This document shows, piece by piece, positions 941 through 12,531 of a stretch of 64,000 nt of DNA. The position numbers and the translations under genes are program-made. The stretch comes from an uncultured archaeon (GTDB lineage Archaea; Iainarchaeota; Iainarchaeia; Iainarchaeales; 1-14-0-10-31-34), in assembly GCA_964608675.1 (NCBI GenBank), contig CAZSOZ010000002.1, positions 160,001 to 224,000 on the forward strand, in the 5' to 3' direction. Within the stretch, counting starts at the first letter, position 1. Each line of letters begins with the position of its first letter. Below the pieces are notes generated by a model. It was not told the DNA's origin. It did no database searches and saw only the letters and a list, made by a program, of their open reading frames with translations.

Positions 941-1036
941 AAGAAAAAAAGGCTTTTTTTAGGATTCAGTTATATTTAAATATTTGTTTTAACTCTATAG
1001 TAATAACATTATATACATAAATTGTTGTGGAATTCA

Positions 1037-1591
1037 ATGAACTCAAAATTAATTATTTTTTCAGCGGCATTCTTGTTTTTTTCATTAAATATACATGCTT
1101 TAAACGTTGATTTACCTAATTCTATTACTTTTTTTGAAGAAGCAAGAAGCATTAATTTTGAAGTAGAAAATGTTTCCGGAAAAACACAGGAATTAAACAT
1201 TGAAGTTTTTGCTCCAATTGCATTTGAAATAAAAGGAGAAAAACAATTCCTTGAAAACGGAGAAACTGCTTTTATTGAATTAACTTTTTTTCCTCAAGAC
1301 AAATATCTGAATTCTGTTTATGAATCAACTGTTTTAATTAAATTAGGAAGAGAAATACAAAAAGAAAAAATTCCATTATATTTTGAAGAAAAAATAGAAG
1401 AAAAAAGAGAAGAAACAGAAGAACAAAAAGAAACATTCAATCCTGTGACTGCTACAGGAAACATTTTTTTGGCAGGAATAACTGAATTTCTTAATCCAAT
1501 TAATTTTATTTTAACTATTATTGCAGCAATACTGCTTGTATTATTTATTTCAAGGCTTACAAAAAGACTAAACAAGGAGGAAATCAAATGA
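1037..1591 (+). CDS. Secreted, C-terminally membrane-anchored protein with one Ig-like domain
   Basis: Signal peptide MNSKLIIFSAAFLFFSLNIHA, beta-rich body, C-terminal TM and basic tail; overlaps the next start (ATGA). Start chosen at ATG 1037. Confidence 0.75.
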   Translation: MNSKLIIFSAAFLFFSLNIHALNVDLPNSITFFEEARSINFEVENVSGKTQELNIEVFAPIAFEIKGEKQFLENGETAFIELTFFPQDKYLNSVYESTVLIKLGREIQKEKIPLYFEEKIEEKREETEEQKETFNPVTATGNIFLAGITEFLNPINFILTIIAAILLVLFISRLTKRLNKEEIK

Positions 1592-3369
1592 AACACTTAA
1601 TTACAGTAATAGCATTAATACTGGTTTTATCAGGAGCACAAGGATTAATTCAGCCCGAAAAAAGCGAGATAAGCATTTCTGCAAAAGAAGTTTTTTCTCT
1701 GCCAATAAAAATAAAAAACGAGTCAAACGAAAAAAAATTAATTCATTTGATTTCAAAAGGTCCTTTAAAAACTGAATTCAGGGCAAACGATTTTTATTTG
1801 AATGCAGGAGAACAAACAGAAATTGCTTTGGATATTTTTCCTTCATTTAAATCAGAAACTTATTTTATTGAATTAAGAATGGAAGCAGACGAAATAACAG
1901 AATACTCTGGACTAACAGTTAATACATGGTTTGCTTCAGAAGAAATACAATTAAAATATTACAGGCAGAATATATGCAGGAACCGACTTGACAAAATAAG
2001 CTTGTTTGTTAAAAACACTTCATCTGAATCCAAAAGAATAAAATTAAGCGCTGAAACAAATTTTTTTATGGCAAACATTGAACCTAATGATATTGATTTG
2101 GATGCAGGAGAAGAAAAATTCGTGGAAATAGAAATTCTTTCCAATACTTCAGTTCCTTTAAATAATTATTCAATTGTAGTTTACGCTGAATCCAACAACA
2201 CAATTGTATCAAAAGAAGTTTTCTTTGATTTAGTTGAATGCACTGAAATAAAAAATGAATTCAGGTTAAGTGCACCTGCAAGAATTTCATTAAGAAAAAA
2301 TGAAACAAAAAGAGTTTATTTTACAGTAAAAAACCTTGAAGACAAAGAAAATGAAATACAGTTTGCAGTAAGAAGCAATCTAATAACAGAATTACAGCAA
2401 ACCAAAACAGTTCTGGAGCCGTTTGAATCAAGACAATTTTGGATTGATATTCAAGCATTAAAAAGCAACAAAACAGGAATACACAAAATAGAATTATATG
2501 CCTTCAACCCGTTTTATGAAGAAAGAAAAACATTCAACGCAGAAGTAAGAGGAATTCATGAAATAAAATCTGTTTTATTAAACAACAATATTGAAATTCA
2601 AAGAGGGCATTCAAAAATTTTCACTTTATTAATTGAAAACAAAGGCGATTTCAAAGAAAAAATTGAATTAAATTTCTTTGAACAAGAAAACATTAACCTG
2701 CATTTTTCTGAAACAAGATTTTATTTAAATGAAAAAGAAGCAAAAAAAGTTTATATTTCTGTTAATCCTTCAATTACTTCAAAATTAAAGGATTACAAAA
2801 TCAAAATTAAAGTTAACGGAAAAGAATTATTTTTGAAGTTCAAAGCAATAAAAGAAGAAAAACCTTTGCAGACAGAAGGAATAATTGAATTTTTGTCTGC
2901 ACCTGAAAGAATAACTTTAAACCAAAAACAACAAAAATTAGAGATTGTAATTAAAAACATTTCAGGAGAAAAGATTGAAAACACAGTGTTTTGGATTGAA
3001 GGACTTCCAAAAGGAACAGCTTTTGAATCCAATATAATAAAAGAACTGGAAACAGGAAAAACAAGAACTGCAGGAGGAACCTTATTTTTAACTGAAGACG
3101 CAGTAAAAGGAACCTACAAAATATTTCTTGTAATTGAAGGAAATGAATTCAGGCAAAAAAAACAGGTTTTATTGAATGTACTTGAAGAACCAGAAGAAAA
3201 AGAAACAGAAAAACAAGAAGACAGTTTTTTTGCAGGGCTTGCAGGACTCGCATCACTTGGAACAGAACAATGGATTGGATTAATAATAATTGTCCTGATT
3301 ATAATCATTTTATTATTGAATCCAGGAACCCAAACAAAAAAAGGGAAAAAAACCTGGGTGAACTATTAG
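1588..3369 (+). CDS. Surface protein with repeated Ig-like (NEW3/CARDB-like) domains and C-terminal TM
   Basis: GGAGG RBS, signal peptide, recurring 'I.I.N......I.L' beta-sandwich units, C-terminal TM WIGLIIIVLIIIILLL. Confidence 0.75.
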   Translation: MKHLITVIALILVLSGAQGLIQPEKSEISISAKEVFSLPIKIKNESNEKKLIHLISKGPLKTEFRANDFYLNAGEQTEIALDIFPSFKSETYFIELRMEADEITEYSGLTVNTWFASEEIQLKYYRQNICRNRLDKISLFVKNTSSESKRIKLSAETNFFMANIEPNDIDLDAGEEKFVEIEILSNTSVPLNNYSIVVYAESNNTIVSKEVFFDLVECTEIKNEFRLSAPARISLRKNETKRVYFTVKNLEDKENEIQFAVRSNLITELQQTKTVLEPFESRQFWIDIQALKSNKTGIHKIELYAFNPFYEERKTFNAEVRGIHEIKSVLLNNNIEIQRGHSKIFTLLIENKGDFKEKIELNFFEQENINLHFSETRFYLNEKEAKKVYISVNPSITSKLKDYKIKIKVNGKELFLKFKAIKEEKPLQTEGIIEFLSAPERITLNQKQQKLEIVIKNISGEKIENTVFWIEGLPKGTAFESNIIKELETGKTRTAGGTLFLTEDAVKGTYKIFLVIEGNEFRQKKQVLLNVLEEPEEKETEKQEDSFFAGLAGLASLGTEQWIGLIIIVLIIIILLLNPGTQTKKGKKTWVNY

Positions 3370-3379
3370 GGGGAGTGAA

Positions 3380-5848
3380 ATGAAAAACAAGACTTTAATT
3401 GCATTAGCATTAATTTTTTTGAGTGCAATAGCAAACGCTCATACAATGGAAGGAGACTTCACAGGATTAACTTTTCAAGGGCAGACAATTGAAAGAACAT
3501 TTCTTTTATGCAATACCTTAAACTTTCAGGAAAATTTTAGTTTATCCAGCAACAACGAATGGATGGAAGTAAGGCCTTTAACCGCATCTGTTCCTGCTGA
3601 ATCATGCAAAGAAATTTATGCATTTATTACTCCTTTGCCTTATTCTGAATCAGGAGAATACCAAATAGAAGTAAACGCAGAAGGAGAACATGAAAGCACA
3701 ACAAAAACATTTTATTTAACTGTATTAGAAGGACACAAAATAAAAATTGAATCACAAAACAGCATTACAACAACTCAATGCAAAGAAGAAGTGTTCAACA
3801 TTGAATTAGAAAATACAGGAATATTTGATGAAAGAGCATTATTTTCAGTTCAAGGATTAAACAAAAACTGGTTTGAATTAAGTTCAAAAGAAATTTTTCT
3901 GCCAAAAAATTCAAAAAGAAACCTTGAATTAAATGTATTAATTCCCTGCAATCAGGAAACAAAAAGATATGACTTCACTTTGCAGGCTGAATTAAAAAAC
4001 ACAGGAATAACAAAAGAAAAAAATTTGTCAATTAACGTTGAAAACGCACAGGAAATATTAATTGAAAGCAGGTCATTTAATGCATGCAATGACTTAACTG
4101 CAATAAATTCACTTTCAATTACAAACAAAGGATTAATGCAAGAAGAATTAACTTTACAAATTGAAGGTCCAACCTGGATTAAATTACAGGAAAATTCAAT
4201 GCAATTAGAATCCGGCCAAACAAAAGAAATTCAAATTAAATTCCTTGAAAACAACCAGGAAGAAAAAAATTATTCATTCAAACTAAAAGTTTACTCAGAA
4301 AAATTCAATCAATACTACAAAAAAAACTTTACAGTTAAAGCAGAAAACTGCTTTGATTTAAGCATTGAAAACGGTCAAATGCAGAATTCAGCCTGCATTG
4401 AATCAAATCCAGAAATTTCATATATCCTGAAAAACACTGGAACAAAAAGAATGCTTTTAAAATTAAGAATAGAAGGAATTAAAGCAGAACTAGAAAAAAA
4501 TTCAATTGCCTTAGAGCCAAACCAAAGCACAGAAATAAAAGCGCAATTAGATTTCAGTGCAATTTCAGCAGACCAGCTTAAATTCATTTTAATTGCAGAC
4601 TCAGAAAATTATTCAAACACAAAAGAAAACACAATGCAATTAGAAAACTGCTATGAAATTCAGTCAGTTGTTCCTTCATTAAAAGTATGCAGAGAAGTTC
4701 CATTAAAAAACCAGTTCATTAAAATATCAAACACAGGAACAAAAAAACAGTCTTTTTCACTTGAATCAAATGTTAACTGGATTAATTTAACAGAAAAAAA
4801 CTTTTCACTTGAAGGCGGACAAACAAAAGAAATAGAATTAATTATTATGCCAAAAAAAACATCACAAGAAGAAACTTATGCAGTAAAAACAACCACAGAA
4901 AACAACCAGTATACAATGACAGGAAACATTGAATATTTAGATAAAGAAACCTGCTTTGGATTAAATATGCAAATAACAAAAGAAATAGAAGTCAATGCAG
5001 GAGAAGGAGCAATCACAACCATACAAATAACCAACCAAGGAAAAACATTACAGCACGTAAATTTTTTAGTTGAAAACTATTCATGGGTTTTCTTTAATCC
5101 AAAAAAATTTGATTTAATGGAAGGAGAAACAAAAGAAGTATACGTTTACTTTAATCCTCCCTTTGATTTTGAACAAGAAAAAGTTTCAGTTCAAGTAAAA
5201 GCAATAACAAACTATGATTTTTTAGTTCAAAAAGCAGTCAAAGTAATTGTTTCAGGAGGAAGCGTGATACTGACAATTGATCCAGAAAACATAAACGTTT
5301 CTCCAACAGAAATAGGAACAGAAGATACAAACGAAAACAAAATTGAAATCACAATACAATTAGAAAACAATACAGAAGCAAACATGAAAATACTAGATGT
5401 AAAAACAAATTACCCTAAATCAAATTACTTTATTAAAGAACCAGTAATCAAAAAACAAACTACAGGAGAAATAATTCTAATTTTTGTTGCAAACCAAAAA
5501 CTTGAATTAAAAGGATTAGAAGTGCCAATAGAAATAGTTACAGACAAAGGCACATACTATAAAGTAGTTCAACTGCCAAAAGAAACAGAAAAAACAGAAG
5601 ACGGAGAAGAAACCACTGGATTTATTTTATTCGGAGAAGATGAATACATTTTAGTTATTCTGATTGTATTAATTGTAATTCTCATAATACTAGCTGCAGT
5701 CAGAAGCGACAAAGAAGAAACAGAAGAACAAATAGTGGATTATTCCCCTGAACAAGATTTTCAAAAAGAAATCAAATCAATAGTAACCAAAAAACCAGAA
5801 AAAAAGAAAACCAAAAAGAAAACCAAAAAAACAAAAAAGAAAAAATAA
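3380..5848 (+). CDS. Large surface protein with Cys-linked Ig-like repeats, C-terminal TM and Lys-rich tail
   Basis: Signal peptide; repeated 'I.N(T/K/Q)G....F.L....WI.L' units with ENC(F/Y) junctions; TM ILVILIVLIVILIILAAV; KKKTKKKTKK tail. Confidence 0.75.
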   Translation: MKNKTLIALALIFLSAIANAHTMEGDFTGLTFQGQTIERTFLLCNTLNFQENFSLSSNNEWMEVRPLTASVPAESCKEIYAFITPLPYSESGEYQIEVNAEGEHESTTKTFYLTVLEGHKIKIESQNSITTTQCKEEVFNIELENTGIFDERALFSVQGLNKNWFELSSKEIFLPKNSKRNLELNVLIPCNQETKRYDFTLQAELKNTGITKEKNLSINVENAQEILIESRSFNACNDLTAINSLSITNKGLMQEELTLQIEGPTWIKLQENSMQLESGQTKEIQIKFLENNQEEKNYSFKLKVYSEKFNQYYKKNFTVKAENCFDLSIENGQMQNSACIESNPEISYILKNTGTKRMLLKLRIEGIKAELEKNSIALEPNQSTEIKAQLDFSAISADQLKFILIADSENYSNTKENTMQLENCYEIQSVVPSLKVCREVPLKNQFIKISNTGTKKQSFSLESNVNWINLTEKNFSLEGGQTKEIELIIMPKKTSQEETYAVKTTTENNQYTMTGNIEYLDKETCFGLNMQITKEIEVNAGEGAITTIQITNQGKTLQHVNFLVENYSWVFFNPKKFDLMEGETKEVYVYFNPPFDFEQEKVSVQVKAITNYDFLVQKAVKVIVSGGSVILTIDPENINVSPTEIGTEDTNENKIEITIQLENNTEANMKILDVKTNYPKSNYFIKEPVIKKQTTGEIILIFVANQKLELKGLEVPIEIVTDKGTYYKVVQLPKETEKTEDGEETTGFILFGEDEYILVILIVLIVILIILAAVRSDKEETEEQIVDYSPEQDFQKEIKSIVTKKPEKKKTKKKTKKTKKKK

Positions 5849-5850
5849 AA

Positions 5851-6576
5851 TTAAATTAAATCAGACAAATAATCTGCAATAAAAGGGCTTTCAATAAAGA
5901 TTGCCTTTTCATTGTCTTCTTTTTTTTCATTCAAAAACAACAAAACTTTCTGTCTGTCAAAAACAATAAACCTTGCTTTTGCTTTGGATTTAACTGCATT
6001 AAATTCCCTTAATTTTTTATGCAAAGAATCTTTATCAAAAGAATTCAAAGCAAATTTAACTTCAACACCCTTAGATTTTAAAGCCTTTAATTTCGAAGAG
6101 AAAGCATTAATTTTCTTTAAAGCATTCTCTTCAGAAGTAGAAATTATAATGCTTTCCTTTGCATTTTTAAGTGAATCAGCTATTATGTTGTTTATTTGGT
6201 TGCTGGAAACACTCCAGACTCCAGAAAAAGAATTGTTTTCTTCTGTTTTTGAATTAAATTTTTTTTTGAGTTCTTCCTTTAAAGAACACATTTCATTTAA
6301 TTCTCTTTCAAAAGAATTCCTTTTCTGTTTTTCATAATTAACTAAAGCTTTTTCAGGCTGAACTGCTTTAAATGAAACAGGTCTTCCAACTGAAACCATA
6401 ACAAAGCCTTTTTTTTCCAAAGACATTAAAACATCATAAACTCTTGCTCTAGGAATTCCTGCTTTTCTGCTTATTTCAGAAGCAGTGGATTCACTTGATT
6501 GATTCAAAGAAGAATACACTCTTGATTCATATTCATTTAATCCAAGCCTTTTAAGCAAAGCAATCAGTTCAGCCAA
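5851..6576 (-). CDS. TrmB-family transcriptional regulator
   Basis: LKRLGLNEYESRVY...EISRKAGIPRARVYDVLMSLEKKGFV...GRP TrmB wHTH and a PLD-like C-terminal part; probable TTG start at 6576. Confidence 0.9.
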   Translation of the reverse strand: MAELIALLKRLGLNEYESRVYSSLNQSSESTASEISRKAGIPRARVYDVLMSLEKKGFVMVSVGRPVSFKAVQPEKALVNYEKQKRNSFERELNEMCSLKEELKKKFNSKTEENNSFSGVWSVSSNQINNIIADSLKNAKESIIISTSEENALKKINAFSSKLKALKSKGVEVKFALNSFDKDSLHKKLREFNAVKSKAKARFIVFDRQKVLLFLNEKKEDNEKAIFIESPFIADYLSDLI

Positions 6577-6703
6577 AACAAAAAACCCCAAAAAAACCTT
6601 TCTCAAAAAAGGTTTAACAAAAATTCAGTTGAATAAATAAAGGTGTTTTGCTTTAAATTCTTTTCTGTACGCTTTCAAAAAAAAATAAGCAAAAAAAAAC
6701 ATT

Positions 6704-9700
6704 TTATTCAAAAATTCCAGAAACAAACTTGTAGTCAACACAAGCAAGGCATTCCCTTATTGTCTTACATGTCTCGCATGCTTCAATTACAGTTATTTCT
6801 TCCACAGGCTTTACAGAAACCACCTTAGTTTCCGTTGGCTTGCAGTAATCTTCTCCTAATTCATTTTTTCTTCCATAATTTTCAGTGAAAATTCTAAACC
6901 AAGCCAAAACTTTTGCAGTATAATCCCCTGCTTTTCCTAATGAAGTGCATCCAGCTGAACTAGAATTATATCTTGCAACAGTAATTGCATTCTTCCAAGT
7001 TGCTTTAGCAGAAGCAGTTGAAGGCAAAACAGTATTTAATTCACTATCACAGGCAGATTCAAATTTTTCTTCTAATTCCCTAAAGTATGTGGTTCCTGCT
7101 TCAATGTTTTTTTCTGAGTTTTTCCATGTTCCATTTTCTTTCCAGTCTAAACCAAAAATATCGCTCCAATTATCCAAATTGTCTTCATACAACTGCATTA
7201 AACCATAAGACTTTTTTGTTCCTTCATCCCCCACTGCTTCAGGATCAAAACTGCTTTCAGCATAAATTATTGCTCTGATTAAATCAGCATCAATTTCATA
7301 TTTTTCTGCATACTTGTTTATTTCTGATTCAAAATCCCTTGCATCCTGCATTGCATTAACACATTCAGTACTTTGTTTTCCTGTCCTGACTGTTGTTTTC
7401 TTTTCTGAAACCTGTGCCTCAAAAACAACTGTTTCTTTTTTTCCTTCACTTAAAACAACCGAAGATTTATCAGGCTTAAAATTATAAATATAAACAGTTC
7501 CTTCAACTATAATGCTCTCAATATTTATTTTTTCTGCATCAACATTAATCACATCTCCCATAGTATTGCACACAGATTTTCCTTTACAAATCTCTTCCCT
7601 GATTTTGTCTTCTGCTTTGTTTTTTATGTCTTCAGGAACAACACAGCTGTCTTCATCAGGTTTAACACAAAGTGTTTTAATCTGAACATCAAGTTCTGCC
7701 AAAACAGGCTCTGGTTCAGAGGAAAGCCTTACTTCAATTGAAGCCGCCTCAAAATTTGGTTCAGAAAAAGTTCCCCCTAAAATTTCTTTTCCGTCAGAAG
7801 AATAACCAATTAAATCGCATTTGCTATCTCCTGTCTTGTCCTGACAGACAAAAAACTGAAGAGTGCTTCCGTCCCAGTTATTAACCGTAATTTTCATTTG
7901 CTCATTTAAAGGAAAAGATTTAACTGAAAAAGTTTTTCCGTTCTCTATTTCACTGAAATCAAATTCAAGCAAGCCGTCAATGTTTGGATAAATTGAAGTA
8001 AAATTTGTTTTTGTGGTTTCAGGAATTATTACTTTTCCTGTTTCTCCAACTGAAAAGAACGCTTGTCTGTCATTTTCATAGTTTTCCAAAAGAATTTCAA
8101 TTGTTTGTGTTTCTTTTGGCAATTCAACGTAATAAGAAGGAACTCCTTTCAGTTTAGTAACAGTTTTATTGTTAACCGACTTAACCTGCAGGTTTTCATA
8201 AACTGCAGGATTCTCCCTGCTTAAATTCTTAAAAAACAGCAGTTTTTCTCCGGTTTTAGATTTATCTAAAACAGAACTGCTTTTACCAAACACAACATCT
8301 TTCAAATCAATTTCTGAAACAGTTTCATCAATTAATTTATTTGTACGACTATAATACCCCCACAATCTTGTTTTTTCTGAAAACAAAATAAAAAAATCAT
8401 ATTTTTTTCCTTTAGTTAATTCAACAGTAAAACTGTTTTCCTTTTCATTTTTTTCAATAACAGTAAAATCACTTTTGCTTTCAGCGCTATCAACAAAAAC
8501 AATTTGCTCCCAATTAAGAGAATCCAACAAATCAAAATTATTTTTTCCGACAAATACTTTTACTTTAAATTTTTCTGTTGGAATAACTGTTTTTATAACA
8601 TTTTCAGGAATAACAACAGTATTTTCAGTGATTTTTTCTTCAAAAGCATTAGTCAAATAACTTTCTAAAATCTTTATTTTATAAGAATCTGCAATACCAG
8701 AAACTTTCACAGGAGAAACAATTAAATTTTCTTTTTCAGAACAAAAAGTGTTTTCCTGAAAATTACACCATTTATTCATTCCATACAATTCATTCAAGTA
8801 TTCTTCTGCAAAACCGCCTTTTCTTGCAGACAAAAATTCAGCTTCAATTTTATTTCCAGAATCATCCACTACAATAGATTCAGTTCCTGCTTGATTTAAT
8901 GCACTAAACACATCAGAAGTCATAACTAAATCAAATTTAAATGAATCAAAATCAAATTGTGTGTCCTGCAAATCAATTTGAGTTGGCTGGGTTTCAACAA
9001 CAAATTTTTCTGACACCCATTCAGGGCAGTCGGAATCAAAAACTCCCGGTTTAATACAATATTTTGGCTGAACTTTAACTTTGTATTCTCCCTGCTGGAC
9101 TTCAGCCAAAAGAGTTTCGCCTGACTGAATTAACTCTGTATTTGTTTCTTGTTCTTCAGGCATTTCCAGCAAACTGAAATCCAGTTTGCTTAAATCAGCT
9201 TCTGAATACTTTAAAGCAGGATACAATAAAAGCGTTCTTTGGTTTGTTTTTTTCATTCTGCTTAAAACATTTTGTTTTGAAGGCGGTTTACTCAAAGAAT
9301 CAATTAAATGAGGTTTAACTGAAAAATTAACAAGGTTTGCAGAACCATACCAAGAATAAACAATAAAATCATCTGTTAAAATTAAAGCTTTTCCAAAAAA
9401 ATCTGTATTTTCTTTGTAATTGGGAATAAAACTGAATTCAAGAGAAGGAATTTTTTTGTAAACATCTTCTCCAAAATTAAAAACATAAAAAGGCAATCCT
9501 TCAAGCTTTAATTCTTTTTCAGAAAAATTAAAAGTGAATTTGTTTTCTTCAGAATTCAAAGCCAAAGGAAATTCCTTTAATCTTTCACTGTATTCTATAC
9601 TAAAAGAAACATTCCTATTATCTGAATCAACAGAAACAACAGTAATTTTTATTTGGGCTCCAAACAAATCTTCAGAAGAACATGATTTGCTTTGTCCTTC

Positions 9701-10153
9701 AGAAATTTCCAGTGCAGAATCACTTAAAAATCCTTGATCGCAGTCAAAAACAATCATTCGGCTTTTAGATGAAATATAACTGAATTCAGGAACAAAACCA
9801 ACCAAAAATTCTGCTTCTGAACCACTAACAGAATTCACAGCAACCCAATAAGGAGAAAATTCATTTTCATTTTTTATTAACCTGTAAGCTCTTCCAGCAG
9901 GAACATTCAGCAAAACAGTGTTATTGTTTTCAAAATAATATTGTTCTGCAAAAGAAGCCTGATAAGAAGCAAGAGAAAAAGCAGTTCCTGCATTCTTCAA
10001 TAAAGTATCTGAAATAATTCCTGCAGAAACATCAGGTTTAATTTGAGCTTGACCTAAAGAATCATAATAAAAAACATTTGAATAAACTTCAGAAAAAACA
10101 ATTGAAGAAAACAAAACCAAAAACAAAACAAACACAATTTTTTTCATCAGCAT
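6704..10153 (-). CDS. Large secreted protein with a C-terminal lytic transglycosylase (SLT) domain
   Basis: Signal peptide MKKIVFVLFLVLFSSIVFS. SLT motifs: INKYAEKYEIDADLIRAIIYAESSFDPEA (catalytic Glu), SYGLMQL, NIEAGTTYF, ARYNS, YTAKV. C-terminal CxxC-x5-CxxC. Confidence 0.85.
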   Translation of the reverse strand: MLMKKIVFVLFLVLFSSIVFSEVYSNVFYYDSLGQAQIKPDVSAGIISDTLLKNAGTAFSLASYQASFAEQYYFENNNTVLLNVPAGRAYRLIKNENEFSPYWVAVNSVSGSEAEFLVGFVPEFSYISSKSRMIVFDCDQGFLSDSALEISEGQSKSCSSEDLFGAQIKITVVSVDSDNRNVSFSIEYSERLKEFPLALNSEENKFTFNFSEKELKLEGLPFYVFNFGEDVYKKIPSLEFSFIPNYKENTDFFGKALILTDDFIVYSWYGSANLVNFSVKPHLIDSLSKPPSKQNVLSRMKKTNQRTLLLYPALKYSEADLSKLDFSLLEMPEEQETNTELIQSGETLLAEVQQGEYKVKVQPKYCIKPGVFDSDCPEWVSEKFVVETQPTQIDLQDTQFDFDSFKFDLVMTSDVFSALNQAGTESIVVDDSGNKIEAEFLSARKGGFAEEYLNELYGMNKWCNFQENTFCSEKENLIVSPVKVSGIADSYKIKILESYLTNAFEEKITENTVVIPENVIKTVIPTEKFKVKVFVGKNNFDLLDSLNWEQIVFVDSAESKSDFTVIEKNEKENSFTVELTKGKKYDFFILFSEKTRLWGYYSRTNKLIDETVSEIDLKDVVFGKSSSVLDKSKTGEKLLFFKNLSRENPAVYENLQVKSVNNKTVTKLKGVPSYYVELPKETQTIEILLENYENDRQAFFSVGETGKVIIPETTKTNFTSIYPNIDGLLEFDFSEIENGKTFSVKSFPLNEQMKITVNNWDGSTLQFFVCQDKTGDSKCDLIGYSSDGKEILGGTFSEPNFEAASIEVRLSSEPEPVLAELDVQIKTLCVKPDEDSCVVPEDIKNKAEDKIREEICKGKSVCNTMGDVINVDAEKINIESIIVEGTVYIYNFKPDKSSVVLSEGKKETVVFEAQVSEKKTTVRTGKQSTECVNAMQDARDFESEINKYAEKYEIDADLIRAIIYAESSFDPEAVGDEGTKKSYGLMQLYEDNLDNWSDIFGLDWKENGTWKNSEKNIEAGTTYFRELEEKFESACDSELNTVLPSTASAKATWKNAITVARYNSSSAGCTSLGKAGDYTAKVLAWFRIFTENYGRKNELGEDYCKPTETKVVSVKPVEEITVIEACETCKTIRECLACVDYKFVSGIFE

Positions 10154-10758
10154 ATCCTCTCCAGTTCATTCAATACAGTCTGATTTTCTAATTCAGTTGA
10201 AGAAAAACTTGTTTCATCAGCTAAAAAAGAAACAAGATTTGCTTTTTCTTCAAAACCAGAATGAAGTTCATTAAAAGCATAAATTAATTCATTAACAGAA
10301 TGCATTTTCTGGTTCAACAAAAGAGTGTTTTTTCCAATAAACTCTAAATCAGTTTTGTTTTCACACAAACTGCTTCCATTAATGTTTTTTGATTCAAGCA
10401 AATCCTTTTTTTCTTTTATTTTTAAAGCCAAATTTAGTTCATCTGCCAAAAGAAGATGAATTTCAATTAAATCCTTTAATGCTTCAATGTCTTTTGTTTC
10501 CTGCATTTCATCCAAAGAACTCTGATAAACAGTTAAATCATCATACAATCCTTCTAAATCCCCAGAAGAAAACTTTATTTCCTGCGAATCATTAATCAAA
10601 TAATCAGGATTAACATTATTTTTCTGCCATAAAGCATTTATTTCATTCACTCCATCAGAAAAAGAAATTGTTTCCTTTTTTTGTTCAGAAAAAAAAACTA
10701 AATAAAAGCCTGCCAAAACAATCAAAACAATCAAGCCTGCAAAAACCTTTGAATCCAT
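10147..10758 (-). CDS. N-terminally membrane-anchored helical protein (paralog of 11796-12395)
   Basis: N-terminal TM, helical body, internal LC and terminal Cys; aligns by eye with the 199-aa ORF. Confidence 0.75.
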   Translation of the reverse strand: MDSKVFAGLIVLIVLAGFYLVFFSEQKKETISFSDGVNEINALWQKNNVNPDYLINDSQEIKFSSGDLEGLYDDLTVYQSSLDEMQETKDIEALKDLIEIHLLLADELNLALKIKEKKDLLESKNINGSSLCENKTDLEFIGKNTLLLNQKMHSVNELIYAFNELHSGFEEKANLVSFLADETSFSSTELENQTVLNELERIC

Positions 10759-11802
10759 TCAATCACTCACCGCGCAATTCATTACATCACAATATTTAAT
10801 AAGAATATTTTCATTCAACAAATTTTGGATTTCAATAAGGTCTGCACCAGAAGGAATAGGTTTTAGTTTATCTCCTAAATCATTATCAGTGTCATTATCA
10901 GTGTCTTCAGATGGTTTTTCTTCGCTTAATGCATCAGAATCATTTAATTTAACTTCAATATTAAAAAAATATTCTTTTCCTTTGCTTGAATCCTCAGTAT
11001 ATTTTTCTGTTTCCTCTGCATTAAAAGAAATTTTCACTGAACCAAAAGAATCGCAATCAACTTTTTTTCCGTCAGAATCAAACAATACTTCAATGTTTTC
11101 GCAAAAAACATTATTGGTTTCTCTTTGCATTATTTTAAAAACAGCCTTTTCTTCTTTCTCAAATGAAGACAAATGAATGTCTGCATTTGTTTTAAGGTTT
11201 CCGCTTTTAATTCTTGTGATTCTGCCTATTTCACTTGAATCAAAAATACTAAATTGTTGTGAAATGCTCCGAAAATCTGCTTCAGAAACAGTTTTTCCAA
11301 ACACCAAAGCCAAATACTCCTTAAATGCATCTTCAGCATACAAATTTATTTGCAATTCAAGGGCTTTTGAATCAGGTTTTTCAGAAACAGTTAAACCAAC
11401 TAAATCCACATCTTTTCTAAATATTCCACGCTGGGTATCACATACAACGCTCTGGGGATACTTATCTTCGAGGTATCCGTAAATATTCCAATTTTCATAA
11501 CCCAAAGGACCGCAGTCAAGTTTTTTTTCAGAAAAAAATCCCTGAGGATCAAATTTAGAGGAAATCTGAAAAGAAGAATAAATTGAAAACTCAAAATTTC
11601 CATTTGAAGGAAAAACGCTTTTGCTTACTCCAACTTTTACTGTTCCCCTTTCATTCAAAACAGGAATTTCACAAAAAGAATCAGAAGGAAAAACACCAGA
11701 ATAAGAAGTGCCTGAACCTTGACACGTTACTCTTGTTTCAGCAGAAACAAAAGAAAAAATTAAAAGAAAAACAAACAATAAAAACAATTTTTTCATCAGC
11801 AA
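10759..11802 (-). CDS. Secreted Cys-containing protein of unknown function
   Basis: Signal peptide MKKLFLLFVFLLIFSFVSA; several Cys; acidic linker DTDNDTDND near the C-terminus. Confidence 0.75.
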   Translation of the reverse strand: MLMKKLFLLFVFLLIFSFVSAETRVTCQGSGTSYSGVFPSDSFCEIPVLNERGTVKVGVSKSVFPSNGNFEFSIYSSFQISSKFDPQGFFSEKKLDCGPLGYENWNIYGYLEDKYPQSVVCDTQRGIFRKDVDLVGLTVSEKPDSKALELQINLYAEDAFKEYLALVFGKTVSEADFRSISQQFSIFDSSEIGRITRIKSGNLKTNADIHLSSFEKEEKAVFKIMQRETNNVFCENIEVLFDSDGKKVDCDSFGSVKISFNAEETEKYTEDSSKGKEYFFNIEVKLNDSDALSEEKPSEDTDNDTDNDLGDKLKPIPSGADLIEIQNLLNENILIKYCDVMNCAVSD

Positions 11803-12395
11803 ACCCCCTGCAGGACCAAAAGAACTGCTTGTAATTCAGACAGGTTTTCCTGAGAATTCACTGCAAGCTCAAGACGTGATATTTCAGCTTTCTCTGCTTC
11901 TTCTGGGAATTCAGAAGAAAAAATAATTATTTTTTCATTAAATGAATCAGAAAAATTTTTCTGCAAAATAAGATTCTGCTGTAGTTCTTCTGCTTTATTC
12001 ATCGAATCACACAAAACATCAAAATCATATTCAGAGGACTCAAAAAAATCAATTAACTTAAAATTTTTTTTTTGAAGCAAAGCATTCTCCACTAAATCCA
12101 AATGAGTTTCTGTTAACATTAAAAGTTTTTCTTTGTCTTCAGATTTTTCCTGTTTTTCCACCAAAGACTGAAATTCAATTAAATCAGATTTTAATGCATT
12201 TAATTTGCTTTCATTCAAAGAATTAACTTTAATAGGATTAATTAAATCCTTTGAATTTAATTCCTGTTTTTCATAAAAAGAATTGATTTCAGTTAAACCT
12301 GAATCAAAAGAATACGCTTGCTGAGAAAAAAAAACAAAATAAAAAGCAACAGCAACAACTGCAACAGCCAAAACAACCAAATAACTCTTGTTCAT
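11796..12395 (-). CDS. N-terminally membrane-anchored helical protein (paralog of 10147-10758)
   Basis: N-terminal TM LVVLAVAVVAVAFYFVFFS; SFDSGLTEIN...DLIN; LC; terminal Cys. Confidence 0.75.
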   Translation of the reverse strand: MNKSYLVVLAVAVVAVAFYFVFFSQQAYSFDSGLTEINSFYEKQELNSKDLINPIKVNSLNESKLNALKSDLIEFQSLVEKQEKSEDKEKLLMLTETHLDLVENALLQKKNFKLIDFFESSEYDFDVLCDSMNKAEELQQNLILQKNFSDSFNEKIIIFSSEFPEEAEKAEISRLELAVNSQENLSELQAVLLVLQGVC

Positions 12396-12531
12396 TAAAC
12401 CACTAAAAATAATTACACAATAGATAGATATAAAGGTTTTTTCTATTTAAAGCTTTCCTTGCCCCTCCAAAAACAGCAAAAAAAAGGTTTATTAATAAAG
12501 AAAAGTGTTTTTTTATTAAGGTGAAAAAAAA

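Follow-up and report, generated by a model that had tools for sequence, protein, structure and literature searches.

A lineage-wide family of membrane-tethered helical proteins encoded beside anchorless secreted proteins in Iainarchaeota

DPANN archaea presumably live attached to other cells, but how they mount proteins on their surface is almost unknown, and most of their lineage-specific protein families are without a function. In the S-layer of Sulfolobales, the products of two neighbouring genes share this task: SlaB, a membrane-anchored stalk with a C-terminal membrane helix, beta(-sandwich) domains and a coiled coil, holds the large outer protein SlaA. Other two-gene arrangements serve protein folding, as in the Lif/LipB foldases and CpaB of Acinetobacter type II secretion, which are N-terminally anchored chaperones encoded beside their substrate. 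In Woese- and Pacearchaeota, large secreted proteins with an SLT domain have been described and interpreted as means to bind or degrade bacterial walls (PMC8204110; PMC10936187). Here, we analyzed a stretch of 64,000 nucleotides (the window; positions 160,001 to 224,000 of contig CAZSOZ010000002.1) from an uncultured member of the Iainarchaeota (Diapherotrites), whose genome (1.2 Mb, 30% G+C) is archaeal by its thermosome, TrmB, RIO and Bud32 kinases and archaeal-type synthetases. The subject of this report is a run of four genes in the window, A1-B1-A2-B2, which would represent two copies of a lineage-wide two-gene module made of a membrane-tethered helical protein (A) and a secreted protein (B). 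The four genes are encoded on the minus strand from 12395 to 6704 without gaps, all abutting or overlapping:

A1: 11796..12395, minus strand; 199 aa, member of the A family with a membrane helix (aa 3-23), a helical ectodomain, the invariant Cys129 and the terminal Cys199 (from translation, paralogy with A2, family alignment and AlphaFold2 model)
B1: 10759..11796, minus strand; 345 aa, secreted protein with signal peptide MKKLFLLFVFLLIFSFVSA, cleavage before E
A2: 10147..10758, minus strand; 203 aa, paralog of A1, with its ATG immediately after the B1 stop
B2: 6704..10147, minus strand; 1147 aa, secreted protein (1149 aa if read from an upstream ATG at 10153)
SLT domain of B2 (lytic transglycosylase, GH23): 7055..7321, minus strand; aa 945-1033, with E-S and GLMQ motifs (Pfam PF01464)
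C-terminal tail of B2, CxxCx5CxxC followed by DYKFVSGIF: 6707..6802, minus strand; kept in B2 of the window and five relatives

A1 and A2 align end to end with 64 of 205 positions identical (31%, E = 1e-18), which bears out the paralogy proposed in the initial annotation of the window. The same genome holds a third A paralog of 172 aa (G000:C1), and a profile built from the three paralogs retrieved no more than 22 proteins from a word-indexed database, every one of them Cys-terminated. An A-gene search of 196 genomes of the same order gave matches in 55. We examined 55 A genes in 42 stretches (40 fetched ones, the first 20 kb of the window, and locus L003) and aligned the 50 full-length sequences. 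The only invariant columns of this alignment are two Cys, at A1 positions 129 and 199. These are the internal Cys of the LC motif and the terminal Cys already noted from A1 and A2 at the outset, and both are kept in 50 of 50 aligned members, with the C-terminal one being the last residue or lying within about a dozen residues of the end. The two probably form a disulfide. A profile of the 50 rows matched 111 of 215 genomes of a phylum sample at E ≤ 1e-5, and 40 of 58 among the most complete genomes of this sample; among the matches listed, all A-positive genomes belong to the same order. Further, an exhaustive search of 1.84 billion cluster representatives yielded 553 matches at E ≤ 0.001 and 309 at 1e-10, and the 150 matches listed (of 553) are all 169-254 aa long. 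No model in Pfam or NCBIfam covers the family, and its relatives bear the public name “hypothetical protein”, from Diapherotrites or unclassified archaea. No fused A-B form was found when proteins of 379-2000 aa were searched with the A profile, which is weak evidence.

All A members carry an N-terminal hydrophobic helix with few residues ahead of it, a long h-region and no cleavage motif. In four members, the membrane helix is replaced by a lipobox-like LAGC/GGC (L062, L065 and L067 of the Bud32-linked clade described below, and the odd variant L070). The tether, together with the lipobox variants and the two invariant Cys, places the helical domain of A outside the cell. AlphaFold2 modeled A1 with high confidence from the 50-row alignment (pLDDT 94.6, pTM 0.83) as a membrane helix followed by a bundle of long helices. 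For this fold, Foldseek returned nothing under E 0.29. The best VIA-align match, to the helical domain of a GH115 enzyme, reached Z 9.5 (rmsd 3.5, 138 aa), which is under the ~13 typical of helical noise, and the best ESM Atlas score for the A1 query (0.78, Saccharimonadota hypothetical proteins) was too low to follow. We conclude that A is a large, unannotated and lineage-wide family, new here, with a confident and so far unmatched fold.

Two other identities for A were considered and rejected. A class III signal, as found in type IV pilins, consists of a short charged N-terminus with a [KR][GA] cleavage site ahead of the hydrophobic stretch; A1 starts with MNKSYLVV and A2 with MDSKVFAG, neither with a G/A cleavage site, and the domain is modeled as an all-helical bundle. 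A signalling protein was ruled out by the missing cytoplasmic domain.

The initial annotation had made its module depend on A homologs being consistently followed by secreted cargo genes, and this pairing held up, directly in 36 of the 55 A genes and less directly in four more. In the 36 direct cases, the next gene, on the strand of A, encodes a signal-peptide protein; these proteins are 319-1539 aa long, some of them truncated at contig ends. The distance from the A stop to the B start is between -25 and +13 nt in 32 of the 36 pairs, and in 22 the two genes overlap, with B start codons chosen heuristically in this census. As for the less direct cases, one A gene is followed by another A paralog and then by a signal-peptide protein gene, one shows a signal peptide ahead of the contig end, and in two, small opposite-strand genes intervene before signal-peptide proteins of 2007 aa and 955 aa. 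Tandem A-B-A-B arrays are present in the window and at 10 other loci (L033, L034, L035, L041, L046, L047, L048, L049, L050 and L066), with three A-B pairs at L048. In the window, both A-to-B junctions read TGC TGA TG AAA AAA and have the 14-mer TGCTGATGAAAAAA in common. The ATG of B (MKK...) shares one base with the A stop, and the B1 stop runs straight into the A2 ATG (TGAATG). Gene order, strand and sizes were confirmed as initially annotated, as was the coupled TGC-TGA-TG/MKK junction at the two A-B borders. Ortholog comparison, together with the coupled ATG at the junction, favours 11796 over the TTG at 11802 as the start of B1, which then has 345 aa, and 10147 as that of B2 (1147 aa).

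The opposite-strand inserts (L044 8866-9987 and L071 3589-4017) sit exactly between A and its giant secreted partner (2007 and 955 aa, respectively). One of them is nucleotidyltransferase-like by sequence motif alone, possibly of toxin-antitoxin type.

Among the remaining A genes, 14 of the 55 are followed by Bud32 (TIGR03724, 201.7 bits), once after a gap of 365 nt, and one, the 285-aa lipobox variant at L070, has neither cargo nor Bud32 as a neighbour. In a quick maximum-likelihood tree, from which five truncated A genes were excluded (the careful search is unfinished), the 14 Bud32-linked A genes form one clade (SH-aLRT 96), and the cargo-linked A genes lie nearly all on the other side of the tree, with L042 as the sole exception. 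The A-Bud32 order is preserved in all 14 clade members, across many families of the order. The third paralog of the genome analyzed here, outside the window at G000:C1:332190-332693 (locus L003 1483-2010, minus strand), lies directly 5' of the genes for Bud32 and ribosomal protein S15.

A and B are co-inherited. Every supported multi-genome A clade has homologous B partners, the co-inherited sets being A1/B1, A2/B2, L047/L048 (twice), L046/L066/L069 and L037/L040; the A1/A2 duplication is therefore old, predating the genus. The initial annotation had called the cargo exchangeable. Its variability stands, but exchange is doubtful, since each A has been passed on with its matching B and the two were not shuffled. 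In the same three genomes, orthologs of A1 are 53-57% identical, compared to 25-28% for B1 and 33-35% for B2, and by this estimate A evolves about half as fast as B.

All-against-all BLASTP divides the B proteins into at least nine groups that are unrelated to each other. Between B1 and B2, an alignment proposed along with the initial annotation, similarity is confined to the signal peptides, both by BLASTP and by profile-profile comparison of ortholog alignments with hhalign. B1 is rich in beta structure and contains two helices, an internal one (aa 154-173) and a C-terminal one; it has neither a Pfam domain nor a membrane anchor. In B2, the signal peptide is followed by about 900 aa of beta-rich sequence that belongs to no known family, then by the SLT/GH23 domain and a Cys-rich tail; a membrane anchor is likewise missing. 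The match to PF01464 (aa 945-1033; E = 2e-14) scores 53.6 bits, where the cut-off is 21.3, and AESSF...GLMQL of B2 aligns to IESSF...GLMQI of the lytic transglycosylase MltC (chain 9vi7_A); MltC 4c5f was aligned likewise. The functional residues of SLT/GH23 lytic transglycosylases are the catalytic Glu of the E-S motif and those of GLMQ. With a profile score above the curated cut-off and both motifs intact, B2 is assigned to this family.

As first noted, only B2 of the two window proteins has a recognisable enzyme domain in Pfam. Scanning 37 B proteins gave seven with SLT, one with Amidase_3, PKD and glucosaminidase, one with a MopE metal-binding motif, one with a sub-threshold CarboxypepD_reg and 27 without any match; peptidoglycan-hydrolase domains are thus present in 8 of 37, and 29 have no recognised enzyme domain. 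Besides B2 of the window, the SLT domain is found in its orthologs at L033, L034, L035 and L038 and in the B proteins of L037 and L071. B2 and its orthologs (1147-1539 aa) have the signal peptide and the SLT domain in common. From the variable enzyme domains initially foreseen, SLT and amidase (Amidase_3 with glucosaminidase) were recovered among the B proteins and M23 was not seen. The amidase-bearing B protein of 1016 aa, at L049 3708-6755, constitutes a second, independent peptidoglycan-degrading cargo type.

These hydrolase domains in 8 of 37 B proteins would suit a different role for A, namely that of an inhibitor or immunity protein restraining a lytic B, as in bacterial effector-immunity pairs. 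Indeed, a small membrane-tethered protein beside a peptidoglycan hydrolase resembles periplasmic immunity proteins. However, archaea of this kind are not known to have peptidoglycan (murein) that would need protection. In addition, the same A family accompanies the 29 B proteins without a recognised hydrolase domain, one homologous family serves unrelated cargo, and the contact predicted for A1 (see below) is with B1, which has no enzyme domain. We consider immunity a very unlikely function of A.

Hydrophobic stretches, whether C-terminal or internal, are absent from all 32 complete B proteins. The same rough test is positive for 29 of the 71 open reading frames of at least 300 aa with a signal peptide in this genome, including the two neighbours at 1588-5848 of the window.

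These neighbours belong to three abutting surface-protein genes on the plus strand (window 1022-5848; 189, 593 and 822 aa), which encode signal peptides and Ig-like repeats. The proteins have weak Cep192/CFAP74 Pfam matches and C-terminal membrane anchors of their own, unlike the anchorless B proteins adjoining them.

Both B proteins of the window had been described as ending in a Cys-containing tail. This is true for the B2 lineage, in which CxxCx5CxxC-x-DYKFVSG[IV]F is found in B2 of the window and five relatives, but not for B1, whose orthologs are without tail Cys. Common to the tails of B1 and B2 is a short aromatic/hydrophobic motif close to the C-terminus. The motif (a hydrophobic pair, D/K, an aromatic residue, then ...[IV][FM]) is present in 14 B proteins from two families of the order, including B1 and B2, and is preceded by CxxCx5CxxC in the B2 lineage. 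A search of the rest of this genome for the strict B2-type tail motif left B2 as the sole match.

Complex prediction was run three times with A1 27-199 (50-row alignment) and B1 21-345 (5-row alignment). The interface between A and B that the initial annotation had suggested looking for is predicted for this cognate pair, with ipSAE values of 0.86, 0.01 and 0.69 (median 0.69) compared to 0.01 for the best of three controls. The mark applied to this score is reached by 116 of 157 solved complexes and by 2 of 215 mismatched pairs, counts that are only rough with user alignments. Partner pLDDT was at least 64 and the run-to-run agreement of contacts at least 0%. To our knowledge, there is no solved complex of the A-B kind, and it therefore seems unlikely that the prediction passed through model memory. 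In the best run, A1 108-128, 135-145 and 178-198, corresponding to the long helix, the surroundings of Cys129 and the C-terminal helix with Cys199 at its end, contact two loops of B1 and its residues 155-176, an internal amphipathic helix. The interface positions of A1 are about as conserved as the rest of the ectodomain within the A1 clade (0.56 versus 0.59), and half as conserved between A1 and A2 (0.15 versus 0.30, Mann-Whitney p = 0.01). Since the modeled interface is conserved within the A1 clade and its conservation is halved between A1 and A2, the pattern fits a partner-specific surface. The model supports binding of B1 by A1, short of demonstrating it, and we refer to the contact as predicted because of the one failed run and the thin B1 alignment.

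The linkage of the two genes could also mean that A and B are merely co-transcribed, with A working independently at the membrane surface and not binding B. Compact DPANN genomes keep many unrelated genes abutting, 14 of the 55 A genes are without adjacent cargo, the Bud32-linked paralog must have its own function, and one A1-B1 run scored 0.01. Against this, the pairing has been preserved with at least nine different B families and in more than one family of the order, it recurs in tandem arrays and its genes have overlapping codons, two of the three complex runs gave 0.69-0.86 compared to 0.01 in the controls, and the interface positions diverge between the A paralogs. We therefore regard mere co-transcription as unlikely, and physical binding of A to B, whether for anchoring or for chaperoning, as probable.

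A binding partner need not be an anchor. In the main rival explanation, A is a membrane-tethered chaperone or foldase acting on its cognate B after translocation, comparable to Lif/LipB or CpaB, and B is then released. The N-terminal tether, the helical ectodomain, the coupled operon, the cognate co-inheritance and the predicted 1:1 contact would be expected from a chaperone as much as from an anchor. The missing anchor of B also suits release, and on the B1 side the predicted contact involves loops and an internal helix, not a terminal tag. However, the cargo families are unrelated in sequence, while known steric chaperones serve one fold, and A has no sequence match to chaperone families. 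Pfam gave no chaperone family for A at E up to 1, and the sole trace, to NCBIfam T2SS_chap_CpaB (E = 0.088, 12.8 bits against a cut-off of 90), covers the membrane helix only. No Lif-like fold or other chaperone is among the Foldseek (best E 0.29) and VIA-align rows shown for A, though a shared fold may have escaped these searches. We judge a released, chaperoned B to be rather unlikely, though a serious contender.

The reading that we favour, tentatively and with slightly less than even confidence, is that each A binds its cognate B and, being tethered in the membrane, retains it at the cell surface. We prefer it because B proteins are anchorless when other surface proteins of this genome are anchored, because the gene coupling suggests matched amounts, and because the cargo is diverse. 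In the mechanism we propose, A would be a type II membrane protein whose single membrane helix leaves 2-8 residues in the cytoplasm and carries a disulfide-stapled helical bundle on the outer side. B would be exported by the Sec pathway, lose its signal peptide and have no anchor of its own, and the overlapping stop and start codons would lead to matched amounts of A and B. The ectodomain of A would bind its own B through a paralog-specific face, formed by the long central helix, the C-terminal helix and the stretch around Cys129. We infer that this contact serves to retain B, which would thereby stay tethered on the archaeal surface. The B proteins displayed in this way would be fast-evolving surface proteins, some of which may cut bacterial peptidoglycan, as B2 would do as a lytic transglycosylase, and these would presumably serve contact with or feeding on bacteria.

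Several observations weigh against retention by A. The Bud32-linked clade, with one gene per genome and no adjacent cargo, shows that the fold works without a partner encoded in cis. We did not find a docking module common to all B proteins, and the tail motif of B1 and B2 falls outside the predicted A1-B1 interface. Moreover, one of three complex runs scored 0.01 and few contacts are common between runs; the B1 alignment is thin (five rows, and pLDDT 62 for B1 alone), and the prediction covers one cognate pair, A1-B1, without swapped pairs. Finally, the present evidence does not separate retention from transient chaperoning. The initial annotation had proposed a helical anchor or chaperone displaying a secreted effector. 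This holds in outline: the membrane tether, the helical ectodomain and the secreted partner stand, with an anchor somewhat more probable than a chaperone.

The separate model of B1 is of low confidence (pLDDT 62), with Foldseek TM-scores of about 0.1 and VIA-align Z of at most 7.4, and no fold was assigned. The top 18 structure matches of this model belong without exception to the class II membrane-fusion proteins (among them dengue E, archaeal Fsx1, EFF-1, HAP2 and alphavirus E1). Each of the two halves of B1 resembles the domain-I-like beta sandwich of these proteins at Z 6.0-7.4, which is within the noise band and without confirmation by Foldseek. Given this weak likeness to domain I, it would be a very long shot to propose that B1-type cargo acts in cell-cell contact, with A as companion or anchor.

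The putative control elements of the locus flank the four genes, both being candidates from sequence only:

Two TATA-like boxes (TTTAAATA and TTTATAT): 12428..12452, minus strand; 33-57 nt 5' of the A1 ATG, candidate archaeal promoter
Two oligo-T runs: 6677..6699, minus strand; immediately past the B2 stop, candidate archaeal terminator

Because the genes are gapless or overlapping, with the TATA-like boxes upstream and the oligo-T runs downstream, a single four-gene transcription unit A1-B1-A2-B2 is plausible. Directly 3' of B2, beyond the oligo-T runs and on the same strand, lies a gene for a TrmB-family regulator (window 5851-6606, minus strand).

With this work, about 550 clusters of “hypothetical protein” are united in a single family, for which the fold is modeled confidently, the topology is defined and a partner can be put to the test. 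If A is a tether, this would explain how anchorless giants, including the published murein-cutting ones, could stay on the archaeal cell. Searching downstream of A genes offers a handle for finding fast-evolving surface proteins in these organisms, and such B proteins are likely determinants of host or prey range. It is also possible, though on balance doubtful, that Iainarchaeota (Diapherotrites) possess a modular surface display, in which A proteins act as sockets that each co-evolve with one fast-diverging secreted B plug, and that tandem multiplication of sockets and plugs arms the cells with varied adhesins and wall-cutting enzymes for life on or off bacterial hosts.

The initial annotation had named the system its best candidate for an undescribed one. 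This holds for the A family, but not to the large secreted SLT proteins of DPANN archaea, which were already published (PMC8204110). Like the fam00969 proteins of that study, B2 is large (1147 aa), carries an export signal and an SLT domain, and has an archaeal host. In contrast, the hosts of B2 and its kin are publicly labelled Diapherotrites, not Woese- or Pacearchaeota. The likeness is one of size, signal and SLT domain, and the account of these proteins in PMC8204110 mentions no partner gene. As far as that account describes them, B2 is the same kind of protein in a Diapherotrites-labelled lineage. We found no description of the A partner family in the literature on DPANN lytic transglycosylases, on peptidoglycan, amidase and surface proteins, and under Iainarchaeota/Diapherotrites murein terms, a scope to which the supplementary family tables of PMC8204110 do not belong.

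With Lif and CpaB, A has in common the N-terminal membrane anchor, the helical extracytoplasmic domain, a gene adjoining that of a Sec-exported partner, and the cognate specificity. It differs from them in having no sequence match, in its many unrelated partner families in place of one enzyme fold, in its position upstream of the partner, and in an archaeal host without outer membrane or type II secretion. With SlaB-SlaA, the A-B module would share a two-gene design in which a small membrane-anchored subunit holds a large anchorless secreted one on an archaeal surface. Unlike SlaB, to which it has no homology, A is anchored N-terminally (aa 3-23) and is a compact helical bundle, and unlike SlaB-SlaA, A-B modules occur in several diverged copies per genome with differing cargo. 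What is new in comparison to these systems is that A pairs with many unrelated secreted proteins, often in tandem, and that the pairs are co-inherited, with a contact between the two partners predicted.

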